Positions 3,708-63,766 of a stretch of DNA of 64,000 bases are shown one piece after another. Position numbers and translations under genes: made by a program. Source of the DNA: Candidatus Iainarchaeum sp. (GTDB lineage Archaea > B1Sed10-29 > WALL01). Under the pieces are notes generated by a model that did no database searches, had not been told where the DNA came from, and saw only the letters and a program-made list of their open reading frames with translations. Position 1 is the stretch's first letter, and every line of letters starts with the position of its first letter. The stretch is from assembly GCA_021162685.1 (NCBI GenBank), contig JAGGYF010000028.1, forward strand, positions 4,699-68,698. Direction: 5' to 3'.

Positions 3708-4091
3708 ATGGCAAAGGTATTTACATTCCATGGAAAAACAATGGATGAACTTAAGGATATGCCTATTGAGGAATTTATGAAGTTAGTTCCATCAAGGCAG
3801 AGAAGATCCCTGAAAAGAGGATTCACAGATGAACAGGAGAAATTCCTAAAAAAATTGAGGAAATATCCTGATAAGATCATACGAACGCATTGCAGAGACA
3901 TGATTATATTACCAGAAATGGTTGGAAGAAAGATTGCAGTCTATAATGGTAAAGAATTTGTTTATATTACAATCCAGCCAGAGATGTTGGGGCATTACCT
4001 TGGTGAGTATGCTCACACAAGAAAACCTGTTAAGCACTCCGCAGCAGGTATTGGTGCTACAAGAAGTACAAAATTCATAGCAGCGAAGTGA
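3708..4091 (+). CDS. rps19: 30S ribosomal protein S19
   Basis: S19p/S15e family ([26 protein letters not shown]). Confidence 0.9.
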
Positions 4092-16633: not shown

Positions 16634-16715
16634 TAGAGCAAAACACAAAAGGTATGAGGTTTCGGGATACACCTGCTACTACCATAGAAATCATTGAAGC
16701 TGGGGTCGCATAGGC

Positions 16716-16764
16716 CCAAATTACATATGGGCGTTCGTAGTGGGATACAAGATCCCACTATTAG
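16716..16764 (+). repeat. conserved structured element C1: CCAAATTACATATGG-GCGTTCGTA-GTGGGAT/ACAAG/ATCCCAC hairpin-TATTAG
   Basis: Near-identical copies at 36438-36480 and 36553-36603; the copy 3 hairpin differs by compensatory changes; lies about 10 nt upstream of tRNA-Ser. Confidence 0.6.
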
Positions 16765-16774
16765 AAAACCATAA

Positions 16775-16858
16775 GCTGGGGTCGCATAGCCTGGTAGTGC
16801 GCAGGCCTGGAGAGCCTGTTTCCTTCGGGATGCGTGGGTTCAAATCCCACCCCCAGCG
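16775..16858 (+). tRNA. tRNA-Ser (anticodon GGA)
   Basis: Manual fold: acceptor GCUGGGG/CCCCAGC, D-stem GCAU/GUGC, anticodon stem CAGGC/GCCUG with loop CUGGAGA, 15-nt variable arm with UUCG tetraloop, T-arm GUGGG-UUCAAAU-CCCAC, discriminator G. Confidence 0.85.
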
Positions 16859-16952
16859 CTCTACTACTGGAGCTAATAGCGCCAAGAGAACCAAAAGCAA
16901 TATAAACAATTATTGTATAAACTTATAACGTATAATTTTATAAGGTGATTGA

Positions 16953-36314: not shown

Positions 36315-36433
36315 GCGGGGGTGCCGGAGCCTCCCTCGTGCCTTCATTGGCACGAAGGCTCAAGTGGTCAAACGGGCAGGATTGAGGGTCCTGTGGCTTA
36401 GTGCCTGCGCGAGTTCGAAGCTCGTCCCCCGCA
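36315..36433 (+). tRNA. tRNA-Leu (anticodon GAG) with a roughly 30-35 nt intron in the D-loop (non-canonical position)
   Basis: Acceptor GCGGGGG/CCCCCGC, anticodon stem CAGGA/UCCUG with loop UUGAGGG, long variable arm, T-arm GCGAG-UUCGAAG-CUCGU, discriminator A; the extra segment containing hairpin CCCUCGUGCC-UUCAUU-GGCACGAAGG lies between D-stem strands at about 36330-36361. Confidence 0.75.
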
Positions 36434-36662
36434 CTGACCAAATTACATATGGTCGTTCGTGGTGGGATACAAGATCCCACTTACAGCAGGAGGGGGTGTG
36501 GAATCCGAGGGTTTCCAGGGGGAACCTGGGTTCCCCATAAAGGACGCTCTGACCAAATTACATATGGTCGTTCGTGGTGTGGCATAAAGCCACACTATTA
36601 GAGGGGGATGTGCCCCCATAAAGGACGCTCTTCGAAGCTCGTCCCCCGCACTGACCAAATTA
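36434..36662 (+). repeat. tRNA-Leu-proximal repeat array: two tandem units (C-element + GC hairpin + ATAAAGGACGCTCT) ending in a 32-nt duplicate of the tRNA-Leu 3' end
   Basis: Unit A 36434-36550, unit B 36551-36631; C-elements at 36438-36480 and 36553-36603; ATAAAGGACGCTCT at 36537-36550 and 36618-36631; TTCGAAGCTCGTCCCCCGCACTGACCAAATTA at 36414-36445 and 36631-36662. Confidence 0.7.
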
Positions 36663-46640: not shown

Positions 46641-48242
46641 ATGGACAAAACAATATTGAAATACGCATTGAAGAATGCACTTGATTATGGAAAAGCAAAT
46701 GAGAGGGCAGTTATTGCTAAGGTTATGGGGGAGCACCCAGAATGGAGAAAAAACGCCAAAGAGATCGTAAAAAGAACAAAGGAAATTATTGAGGAGATAG
46801 ACGCGTGGGATGATGATAAAAAAAGGAAGAAGCTCTTAGAGCTATGGCCAGATGTATTTGAAGAAAAAGAGAAAAAAGAAGAATTACCCGAACTTCCAGG
46901 AGCAGTTAAAGGAAACGTTGTTATGATGTTCCCACCAGAACCATCTAAATATCCACACATTGGGCATGCGAAAGCAGCATTATTGAACTATGTATATGCA
47001 AGGAAATACAATGGAACATTTATATTAAGATTTGAAGATTCAAATCCAGCAAAGGTTGAAGAACAGTATTACAAAATACAAGAAGAGGATTATAAATGGC
47101 TTGGGATGGAATGGGATAAAGTTGATTATATCTCTGACCACATGGACACATTTTATAGCATAGTGGAACGATTGTTGGCAGAGAAAAAAGCGTATGTTTG
47201 CACATGCGAGAAGGAGAAGATAAGGAGAGATAGGACAGAGAAAAAAGCGTGCGAATGTAGAGATGGAAGAAACAACAGGCTTTGGGAGGAGATAAAGAAA
47301 GGCGCAGGATATGTTGTCAGAATGAAGATAGATATGACACATAAGAATGCTGCTATGCGCGACCCCACAATCATGAGGGTTGTGGACAAGGAGCATCCAC
47401 GGACTGGAAACAAATACAAAGCATGGCCAACATACGAATTTGCTACATCTGTCATGGATGGTATTGAGGGCATAACCCACAGAATAAGATCAAAAGAGTT
47501 TGAAACAAAGAATGAAGTACAAGCATTTATGAGAACTGCTTGCGGTTTCCATAACCCTGTTATAATCTCAATAGGTAGATTGAATCTAGAAGGGATTGAA
47601 GCTGCTGGTAGGAAAAATAGAGAACTTGTTGAATCTGGAAAGTATATGGGATGGGATGACCCACGATTGCCAACCCTAAGGAGTTTCAAAAGAAGGGGAT
47701 TTAAACCAGAGGCCATAAAGGAGTTTGTCCTTAGGTCAGGCATATCAAAGGCGGATTCAACCTTGCCCATGAGCGTCCTTGAGTCAATAAACAGGAAGTA
47801 CATAGAACCAGAGGCAAACAGGTTGTTCTTTGTTCCAGATCCAAAGAAGATTGTTGTTGAGGGTATACCAAAAACAGTAGTAAGGCTAAAAAATCATCCC
47901 TCATTCCCAGAGAGAGGATTTAGAGAATACGTGCTTGAAGGAACTGTTACATTCTATGTTCCAGAGGTCCTCAATGAGTTCAGGTTGAAGGATGCATTTA
48001 ATGTAAAGGATGGCCAATACAATGGAGAAGAGTTAATGGACATACCAAAAATCCAATGGGTGCACGAGGGAAATCACGTAGAATGTAGTGTGGTTATGCC
48101 AGATGCCTCAATTGTAAGTGGGGTCATTGAAAAGGCCATTTTGGACGCAAAGGTGGGGCAGAGGTTCCAGCTCGAGAGGTTTGGATATGTAATCCTGGAT
48201 AGCCTTAAGGATGGTATCTCGTTCTGGTATACTCATAAGTAA
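46641..48242 (+). CDS. gltX: glutamyl-tRNA synthetase (archaeal/eukaryotic type)
   Basis: Class I HIGH motif PHIGHAKAA; archaeal GluRS/GlnRS catalytic core. Confidence 0.85.
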   Translation: MDKTILKYALKNALDYGKANERAVIAKVMGEHPEWRKNAKEIVKRTKEIIEEIDAWDDDKKRKKLLELWPDVFEEKEKKEELPELPGAVKGNVVMMFPPEPSKYPHIGHAKAALLNYVYARKYNGTFILRFEDSNPAKVEEQYYKIQEEDYKWLGMEWDKVDYISDHMDTFYSIVERLLAEKKAYVCTCEKEKIRRDRTEKKACECRDGRNNRLWEEIKKGAGYVVRMKIDMTHKNAAMRDPTIMRVVDKEHPRTGNKYKAWPTYEFATSVMDGIEGITHRIRSKEFETKNEVQAFMRTACGFHNPVIISIGRLNLEGIEAAGRKNRELVESGKYMGWDDPRLPTLRSFKRRGFKPEAIKEFVLRSGISKADSTLPMSVLESINRKYIEPEANRLFFVPDPKKIVVEGIPKTVVRLKNHPSFPERGFREYVLEGTVTFYVPEVLNEFRLKDAFNVKDGQYNGEELMDIPKIQWVHEGNHVECSVVMPDASIVSGVIEKAILDAKVGQRFQLERFGYVILDSLKDGISFWYTHK

Positions 48243-63594: not shown

Positions 63595-63635
63595 ATAACA
63601 TATTTTTATATGATAATCAACACAATAGAGTAGGC

Positions 63636-63766
63636 AGCCCCGTAGTCTAGTGGCCAAGGATGCAGGCCTTTGGAGCCTGCGACGGCGGTTCGAAAATGAG
63701 GAACCTCCAGCGGGTTCCTCATCCACCTCCAGCAACCACTGGAGTTCGAAAATCCGCCCGGGGCTA
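63636..63766 (+). tRNA. tRNA-Gln (anticodon UUG) with a roughly 56-nt intron inside the T-loop (non-canonical position)
   Basis: Acceptor AGCCCCG/CGGGGCU, D-stem GUCU/GGAU, anticodon stem CAGGC/GCCUG with loop CUUUGGA, T-stem GGCGG/CCGCC; the T-loop is interrupted, with GTTCGAAAAT repeated at 63688-63697 and 63744-63753. Confidence 0.7.

Follow-up and report, generated by a model that had tools for sequence, protein, structure and literature searches.

The canonical intron of archaeal tRNA genes lies at position 37/38 and forms a strict 3-4-3 hBHBh' motif (Marck and Grosjean 2003, as cited in PMC6379350), the archaeal bulge-helix-bulge (BHB) layout being two 3-nt bulges that are 4 bp apart (PMC6379350). 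Non-canonical and multiple tRNA introns are described for the Thermoproteales and for other archaea with the (alpha-beta)2 form of the splicing endonuclease EndA (Sugahara et al. 2008; Fujishima et al. 2010; as presented in PMC4033280 and PMC3239211). Introns within the T-loop are known from ARMAN-2 (Ca. Micrarchaeum acidiphilum), whose pre-tRNA-Cys(GCA) carries a 59/60 hBH intron that is cleaved in vitro by epsilon2 EndA (Fujishima et al. 2011, PMC3239211) and in whose tRNA-Pro the T-loop is interrupted by introns at both 53/54 and 59/60 (PMC3239211). Relaxed motifs are reported to be cut by the (alpha-beta)2 and epsilon2 types of EndA (PMC5829648, PMC6379350), and the L3-bearing alpha4 EndAs found in several DPANN lineages go together with a higher number of disrupted tRNA genes (PMC5829648). 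Moreover, the incomplete tRNA sets of DPANN archaea point to disrupted tRNA genes that are undetected (Kaneta et al. 2018, PMC5829648).

The locus analysed here comes from a DPANN archaeon, a 'Candidatus Diapherotrites' metagenome-assembled genome (MAG), and consists of a tRNA-Gln(UUG) gene that is interrupted within its T-loop. We consider it highly probable that this is a genuine gene with a 58-nt, protein-spliced intron at position 59/60, belonging to the relaxed BHB type.

The tRNA-Gln(UUG) gene and its insert

The window, i.e., the whole 64,000-nt stretch of DNA that was analysed, has a G + C content of 40% and also encodes archaeal aIF5B, aIF2-gamma, SecY, GluRS (46641–48242) and anaerobic ribonucleotide reductase. 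The tRNA-Gln(UUG) gene is adjoined on its upstream side by the gene of a KaiC-like ATPase (J7K68_04240, Pfam PF06745; 62896–63594), the database record of which starts three residues after the first ATG of the ORF in the window; the KaiC-like protein shows 100% identity to this record, which belongs to a 'Candidatus Diapherotrites archaeon' MAG. The A/T-rich sequence TTTTTATAT (63603–63611, plus strand), located approximately 25–33 nt upstream of tRNA position 1, is a candidate archaeal TATA box, judging by the general position of such boxes in archaea.

The complete intron-bearing gene occupies positions 63636–63766 of the plus strand, on which all of its features described below are located, and was identified from the sequence, from its fold and with ARAGORN after in silico splicing. 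The layout of the gene is AGCCCCG-UA-GUCU...GGAU-G-CAGGC-CUUUGGA-GCCUG-CGAC-GGCGG-[65 nt]-CCGCC-CGGGGCU-A. The acceptor strands AGCCCCG (63636–63642) and CGGGGCT (63759–63765) are followed by the discriminator A (A73, 63766), CCA is not encoded, and the anticodon TTG is found at 63670–63672 and placed at position 35 by ARAGORN. As the first-pass annotation of this DNA had stated, the T-stem strands GGCGG (63684–63688) and CCGCC (63754–63758) are separated by 65 nt (63689–63753), and the repeat search recovered the direct repeat reported there, GTTCGAAAAT, at 63688–63697 and 63744–63753, with the two copies being 100% identical and spaced by 56.

When ARAGORN was run on the window, with and without the intron option, it missed the tRNA-Gln and called only tRNA-Ser(GGA) and tRNA-Pro(GGG). 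Likewise, the search of the window with Rfam at the gathering threshold missed the tRNA-Gln and returned the same two genes only. At a permissive E-value, the Rfam tRNA model matched positions 63643–63708 (model positions 8–63) with 22.4 bits, the gathering score being 29. The acceptor, anticodon and T stems are all present in the fold of the precursor. The minimum free energy (MFE) of the 133-nt precursor was −64.1 kcal/mol versus −44.6 ± 3.8 for shuffled sequences (z = −5.1), and none of the 200 shuffles folded as well.

In silico splicing was tried in every register, and each product was given to ARAGORN, which recognised tRNA-Gln(ttg) for nearly all of them. The removal of 58 nt gives a 73-nt product with a cloverleaf fold and the 7-nt T-loop UUCGAAU, and the registers keeping 4, 5 or 6 nt of the 5' repeat copy all lead to UUCGAAU. 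The first-pass annotation was therefore right in that splicing restores a T-loop of this type, but not in the proposed intron size of about 56 nt, as 58 nt have to be removed and the removal of 56 leaves a 9-nt loop. It had also regarded the exact junction as ambiguous. This is true of the sequence, where all registers that leave 7 nt in the loop lead to one and the same product, but not overall, as the BHB geometry picks 59/60.

For comparison of the mature T-loop, genome contigs were scanned for exact matches to a pattern, with a 30-mer of the 5' exon as the query. The matches were 14 intronless euryarchaeal tRNA-Gln genes (Methanotrichaceae, Methanohalobium, Thermoplasmata and Methanophagales), all of which carry the T-loop TTCGAAT and have the same anticodon and T arms as the window gene. 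These genes, with no close relatives among them, were used solely as comparators of the mature T-loop.

The 5' exon (63636–63694; tRNA positions 1–59), delimited by the BHB geometry, ends with GGCGG and the T-loop nucleotides U54–A59 (63689–63694). It is followed by the 58-nt intron (63695–63752), the removal of which produces TTCGAAT and the register of which matches that of 40 other introns. The 3' exon (63753–63766) consists of U60, CCGCC, CGGGGCT and the discriminator A. The intron position, 59/60, is outside 37/38, and the description of this T-loop intron as non-canonical in the earlier annotation was correct.

Splice-site geometry and homologous introns

Cleavage within a BHB takes place after the second nucleotide of each bulge. 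A single register fits the tRNA-Gln, with the 5' exon ending at A59 (63694) and the 3' exon starting at U60 (63753). Prediction of a BHB motif at the exon-intron boundaries had been proposed as a check of the insert, and such a motif can be drawn: it is composed of the T stem, the 3-nt bulge AA|U60 and 4 bp formed by U54–G57 with CGAA. The 5-bp T stem serves as the outer helix h. In the central helix H, the 5' strand (U54 U55 C56 G57; 63689–63692) forms four Watson-Crick pairs, with pair probabilities of 0.91–1.0, and the 3' strand is the intron sequence CGAA (63747–63750), the register being kept in all 41 homologous introns described below. The 3-nt bulge AA|U60 with the 3' splice site (63751–63753) is unpaired in both the MFE and the centroid folds. 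The bulge of the 5' splice site, A58 A59|A(i1) (63693–63695), was assigned by homology with the strict hBHBh' members of the family, from which we infer that the exact 5' splice site is after A59.

The intron folds into two hairpins, both of which are also detected as inverted repeats. Hairpin 1 (63696–63722; 11-bp stem AUGAGGAACCU / GGGUUCCUCAU, loop CCAGC) begins exactly at intron nucleotide 2, which is the start of helix h' in a strict BHB. Between hairpin 1 and H there are CCAC, hairpin 2 (63727–63744; CUCCAG / CUGGAG, loop CAACCA) and UU. The repeat search also found an internal 9-nt direct repeat, ACCTCCAGC, at 63703–63711 and 63725–63733. A strict hBHBh' motif would include a second bulge and an h' of at least 2 bp, and the h' of this intron is 1 bp; all elements of the hBH motif, i.e., h, a 3-nt bulge with a splice site and a 4-bp H, are present. 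As hairpin 2 separates hairpin 1 from H, the 5' site is placed at a three-way junction, which corresponds to the relaxed hBH (BHL) motif. On the modelled fold, the motif of the window intron is thus classed as relaxed hBH, or bulge-helix-loop, and not as strict.

In the MFE fold, H is lengthened to a palindromic 6-bp helix UUCGAA/UUCGAA by the pairing of A58 and A59 with U63746 and U63745. When both bulges were forced to be unpaired, the free energy was −62.0 versus −64.1, i.e., at a cost of 2.1 kcal/mol. An unconstrained BHB scan of the pre-tRNAs returned several chance candidates of equal or similar score. As the BHB motif alone is weakly specific, it was the tRNA constraint and the comparative data that decided the assignment.

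Relatives of the locus were obtained as contigs encoding KaiC-like homologues with 49–57% identity, labelled here by L-numbers. In all of the fetched relatives, tRNA-Gln(UUG) is located directly downstream of the KaiC-like gene. Comparison with the tRNA-Gln of relatives, which the earlier annotation had recommended, revealed an intronless syntenic orthologue in L016, L017/L018, L019/L020 and L022, and these orthologues carry the 7-nt T-loop TTCGAAT. Where the exons of the window gene and the intronless orthologues differ, the changes in the anticodon and T stems compensate each other. The syntenic orthology with intronless tRNA-Gln genes argues against the window gene being a pseudogene.

The tRNA-Gln of L021 (GCA_021161465.1) contains two introns. 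Its D-loop intron has 27 nt, an H of 4 bp and an h' of 8 bp, and applying the same cleavage rule to it yields exactly the intronless consensus GGCC|AATCAT. Its 59/60 intron is 167 nt long (3818–3984), with the bulge AC|U and three of the four H pairs. An even longer 59/60 intron, of more than 330 nt (1034–1368), is present in L065 and includes three tandem units of ~30 nt (GGGTTGACACCCTCTCTACACCCGCAGAA). A motif similar to these units, AGGGTTGCACCTCTTTACGCCTGCAGG, opens the 167-nt intron of L021, and the sequences suggest that the two represent a related, expanding intron. Both are located at the 59/60 site of the window intron, but they are unrelated to it in sequence and differ from it in length. 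A common site with differing presence, length and sequence is the pattern that gain, loss and remodelling of introns would be expected to produce.

The wider set of genes was obtained in one metagenome scan for tRNA-Gln(UUG) with a T-loop TTCRAA that lacks the obligatory C61 as the next nucleotide, which yielded 59 loci where the T-loop of tRNA-Gln is interrupted. The scan loci, the window and L021 together gave 41 unique parsed genes. In every one of them, the insert directly follows A59, and downstream of it come N N|U60 (with C instead of U in one gene) and then the strands that complete the T stem and the acceptor stem; the introns have 16–167 nt. Helix H has all four pairs in 23 of the 41 genes and three of four in the remaining 18, the random expectation for four pairs being ~3%, and with the register shifted by 1–4 nt either way, four pairs were formed in none. 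The variants of the intron strand (CGAA, CGGA, UGAA and CGGG) keep the pairing with the invariant exon UUCG, and the commonest 3' bulge is AA|U (15/41). In 20 genes, the motif is strict hBHBh', with an inner helix that starts from intron nucleotide 2 and is 4 bp or longer, which fixes the 5' cleavage after A59. The relaxed form with an h' of at most 1 bp, as in the window, was found in 16 of the 41. The gene with the closest exons, L029/L040, has only the 5' GAGGA...UCCUC hairpin and the 3' GAAAAU of its intron in common with the window intron; past those two stretches, the alignment of the two introns showed no convincing homology. Judging from these sequences, 59/60 is a recurrent intron site for the tRNA-Gln of uncultivated archaea. 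The gene, its tRNA-compatible intron boundaries, the hB-H geometry and the conservation over many homologous genes are direct observations.

A group of loci (L028, L030–L032, L036, L039, L041, L052, L056, L066 and L077) carries a strict 59/60 intron with an h' of 9 bp. Directly upstream of the anticodon arm, these genes have no recognisable acceptor or D-arm, and the sequence ...caggcccgcaaaagtatgtcGGCC is found there, which would mean that the genes are split or have a second intron, as far as can be read from the contigs. At ~1.2 Mb, two of these contigs are as large as a small archaeal genome.

In the splicing reaction that we propose for the window gene, CGAA at the 3' end of the intron would pair with U54–G57 of the T-loop and form the 4-bp central helix of the BHB, with the T stem as the outer helix. 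The 3' splice site would be located in the bulge A-A|U60 and the 5' site, A58-A59|A, at the three-way junction. Both sites would be cut by EndA, leaving a 2',3'-cyclic phosphate and a 5'-OH, and the exons would be joined by an RtcB-type ligase at the predicted mature junction ...GGUUCGAA|UCCGCC.... The product would be a 73-nt tRNA with the T-loop UUCGAAU and with CCA added later, the predicted mature tRNA reading ...GGCGGUUCGAA|UCCGCCCGGGGCUA(CCA). The cleavage by EndA, the ligation and the expression of the gene are presumed from this analysis.

The possibility of a splicing endonuclease of broad specificity in this lineage, at which the first-pass annotation had hinted, seems reasonable, with one relaxed T-loop intron and one D-loop intron in the window, and it fits the literature (PMC3239211, PMC5829648). 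A tblastn search of the window and the loci with the M. jannaschii EndA (which matches PDB 1A79) gave insignificant matches only, and the window contains no EndA gene; in a search of a large database with the same query, the best 120 matches were all methanogen EndAs. Two weak matches among the loci were rejected: the ORF in L046 resembles, by eye, the end of GatD beside GatE, and the ORF in L064 has no resemblance to EndA. Locus L046 has a 115-nt 59/60 intron, and its GatD-end-like and full-length GatE-like ORFs (1–1887) are located ~5.5 kb upstream of the tRNA-Gln, the likeness to GatD/GatE (Glu-tRNA-Gln amidotransferase) having been judged by eye from the translations.

Other tRNA genes of the window, the direct repeat and rival explanations

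The first-pass annotation had also described a D-loop intron in a tRNA-Leu; this gene, tRNA-Leu(GAG) (36315–36434), was missed by both ARAGORN and Rfam. The intron (31 nt, 36333–36363) is corroborated by a 3-4-3 BHB and is a second non-canonical intron in the window. The motif of this intron comprises an h of 4 bp, the bulges CU|C and AA|G, H = GAGC:GCUC and an h' of 9 bp with one C.A mismatch, and the MFE fold lengthens H to 6 bp. The predicted D-loop of the mature tRNA-Leu, AGCCUGUGGUCAAA, is 2 nt longer than in the reading AGCC|UGGUCAAA, which would need asymmetric cuts.

A 32-nt sequence, TTCGAAGCTCGTCCCCCGCACTGACCAAATTA (36414–36445), which runs from the T-loop of the tRNA-Leu to its 3' end and includes a 12-nt trailer, is exactly repeated at 36631–36662. 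Between the two copies there are two related units (~36434–36548 and 36549–36630) that start with CTGACCAAATTACATATGGTCGTTCGTGGTG and end with CCCCATAAAGGACGCTC, the hairpins of which differ (GTGGGAT/ATCCCAC vs. GTGTGGC/GCCACAC). Judged from the sequence, the arrangement resembles an att-type duplication flanking a miniature or decayed element, or else a spare 3' tRNA piece from 53/54. Similarly, the first 15 nt of the tRNA-Ser(GGA) gene (16775–16859), GCTGGGGTCGCATAG, are also present at ~16699–16713 (region 16699–16789), and this fragment is followed by a 44-nt copy (16716–16759, 95% identical) of the element found downstream of the tRNA-Leu; a tRNA fragment is apparently duplicated around the same repeat again. 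The repeated element had no Rfam match and no match in a scan of viral contigs. In L019 (GCA_016939415.1; ~2785–2915), 13 nt of the 3' end of the tRNA-Gln, GCCCGGGGCTACT, are repeated ~110 nt further on, which can be described as a short, att-like duplication downstream of an intronless tRNA-Gln(UUG). The 32-nt duplication at the tRNA-Leu contrasts with the 10-nt repeat at the tRNA-Gln insert.

The 5' copy of GTTCGAAAAT is made up of G53, the T-loop nucleotides 54–59 and the first 3 nt of the intron. The 3' copy, made up of the last 9 nt of the intron and U60, holds the palindrome TTCGAA. As TTCGAA is palindromic and the intron CGAA pairs with UUCG, some of the T-loop sequence necessarily recurs where the intron ends. 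By comparison of the sequences, 4–7 of the 10 repeat nucleotides can be accounted for by helix H and the common AA|U bulge. Pairing does not require the GUU that precedes CGAA at the 3' junction, nor the AAU with which the intron begins. Among the 41 introns, the junction repeat reaches 10 nt only in the window gene; in the others it has 3–8 nt, mostly 3–6. The extra length of the repeat may have come from a local duplication or remodelling.

The repeat could also be read as the scar of a recent insertion or duplication that made or remodelled the intron, in which case the locus could capture the origin of a T-loop intron at integration sites. If this were true, T-loop introns may arise at, or protect against, the sites from the T-loop to the 3' end that are used by integrating elements. 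This reading, to which the att-like duplications of tRNA fragments at the tRNA-Ser, the tRNA-Leu and the tRNA-Gln of a relative lead, is in our opinion unlikely.

It is very improbable that the gene is a tRNA-Gln pseudogene produced by a MITE-like insertion or a slippage duplication, with the repeat as a target-site duplication and a functional copy elsewhere. Such an event would be in keeping with a perfect 10-nt direct repeat around a 46-nt insert and with this repeat being the longest of the 41 homologous introns, and insertions do happen in this genome, as the tRNA-Ser and tRNA-Leu of the window are flanked by duplicated tRNA fragments and the repeated element. However, the repeat search found no terminal inverted repeats in the 46-nt insert, which is present as a single copy in the window and 81 loci. 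Moreover, the exons are intact, with compensatory changes in the stems and a syntenic position, the site and the pairing register are identical to those of 40 other tRNA-Gln introns, and helix H with the AA|U bulge demands 4–7 of the 10 repeat nucleotides.

Other kinds of inserted elements were considered and rejected. A MITE or another transposon would agree with the direct repeat, but terminal inverted repeats and any further copy in the window and 81 loci are missing. For an integrated element with an att duplication, only 10 nt are duplicated, and the 46 nt that they enclose have no coding capacity. As regards group I and group II introns, the insert has 58 nt, and no Rfam intron family was matched at the gathering threshold or at E ≤ 10. 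The search for copies of the intron in the window and 81 loci, as a test of intron transposition, found none.

Within the reading as a protein-spliced intron, the alternative to the 59/60 register is a symmetric 3-6-3 register with the 6-bp helix UUCGAA/UUCGAA and AAU bulges, in which 56 nt (63697–63752) would be removed and a 9-nt T-loop, UUCGAAAAU, would be left. The 6-bp helix is the one formed in the MFE fold, the AAU triplets are symmetric, and ARAGORN still accepts the product with the 9-nt loop. This register is nevertheless most doubtful, given that the 7-nt TTCGAAT occurs in every intronless orthologue and comparator, that the family's strict hBHBh' introns set the helix at 4 bp and the cut after A59, and that, for archaeal EndA, recognition of bulges spaced by 4 bp has been described (PMC6379350). 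An assembly artefact, i.e., a spurious local duplication or a chimeric join within the tRNA gene, might be suspected in a metagenome-assembled genome for which the sole independent contig at the locus (L015, 739 bp) ends before the tRNA, but it is barely conceivable, considering that the 10-nt repeat is far below the k-mer size of assemblers, that the insert has strongly folding hairpins and a BHB helix in the correct register, and that the same gene architecture is found in independent assemblies from many samples.

Comparison with known systems

Because the gene escapes both ARAGORN and Rfam, tRNA-Gln(UUG) would be listed as absent from the MAG by automated annotation; it is the sort of apparent gap in DPANN tRNA sets for which Kaneta et al. 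2018 (PMC5829648) hold unrecognised disrupted tRNA genes responsible. The set of 41 genes, with introns of 16–167 nt and, besides, the intron of more than 330 nt in L065, includes strict and relaxed forms that are distributed patchily among syntenic relatives. It could be used to train intron-aware tRNA finders or could serve in studies of intron gain and loss. What is known about the mechanism of splicing is unchanged by the window intron.

In the literature search, no paper specifically on tRNA introns in Diapherotrites was found. The likeness to ARMAN-2 consists of the DPANN host, the position 59/60 and the combination of the T stem as the outer helix with a 3-nt bulge and a central helix. 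Moreover, the second bulge and the inner helix are missing both in the window intron and in the tRNA-Cys of ARMAN-2. The host of the window intron is from the phylum Diapherotrites, ARMAN-2 being Ca. Micrarchaeum acidiphilum. The window intron interrupts a tRNA-Gln, has 58 nt and two hairpins and a predicted cleavage, whereas the ARMAN-2 intron interrupts a tRNA-Cys and has 13 nt.

With the introns of Thermoproteales, as far as they are presented in PMC4033280 and PMC3239211, the window intron shares a location outside 37/38, an often relaxed BHB, the frequent occurrence of several introns per genome and a patchy gain and loss. In the same accounts, the Thermoproteales belong to TACK, and similar introns recur across their tRNAs, a recurrence interpreted as transposition. 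The window intron is from DPANN and, unlike the recurring introns of Thermoproteales, had no detected copy in the window or the 81 loci.

The proposed processing by EndA and an RNA ligase, the 4-bp central helix and the 3-nt bulge with the cut after its second nucleotide are common to the window intron and the canonical 37/38 intron. The window intron differs from the canonical one in being located in the T-loop and not in the anticodon loop, and in having a three-way junction in place of the inner helix. The exon strand of H is the conserved T-loop UUCG in the window intron, versus the anticodon region in the canonical intron. The window intron is of a kind already known from related DPANN archaea, and it is mechanistically ordinary.
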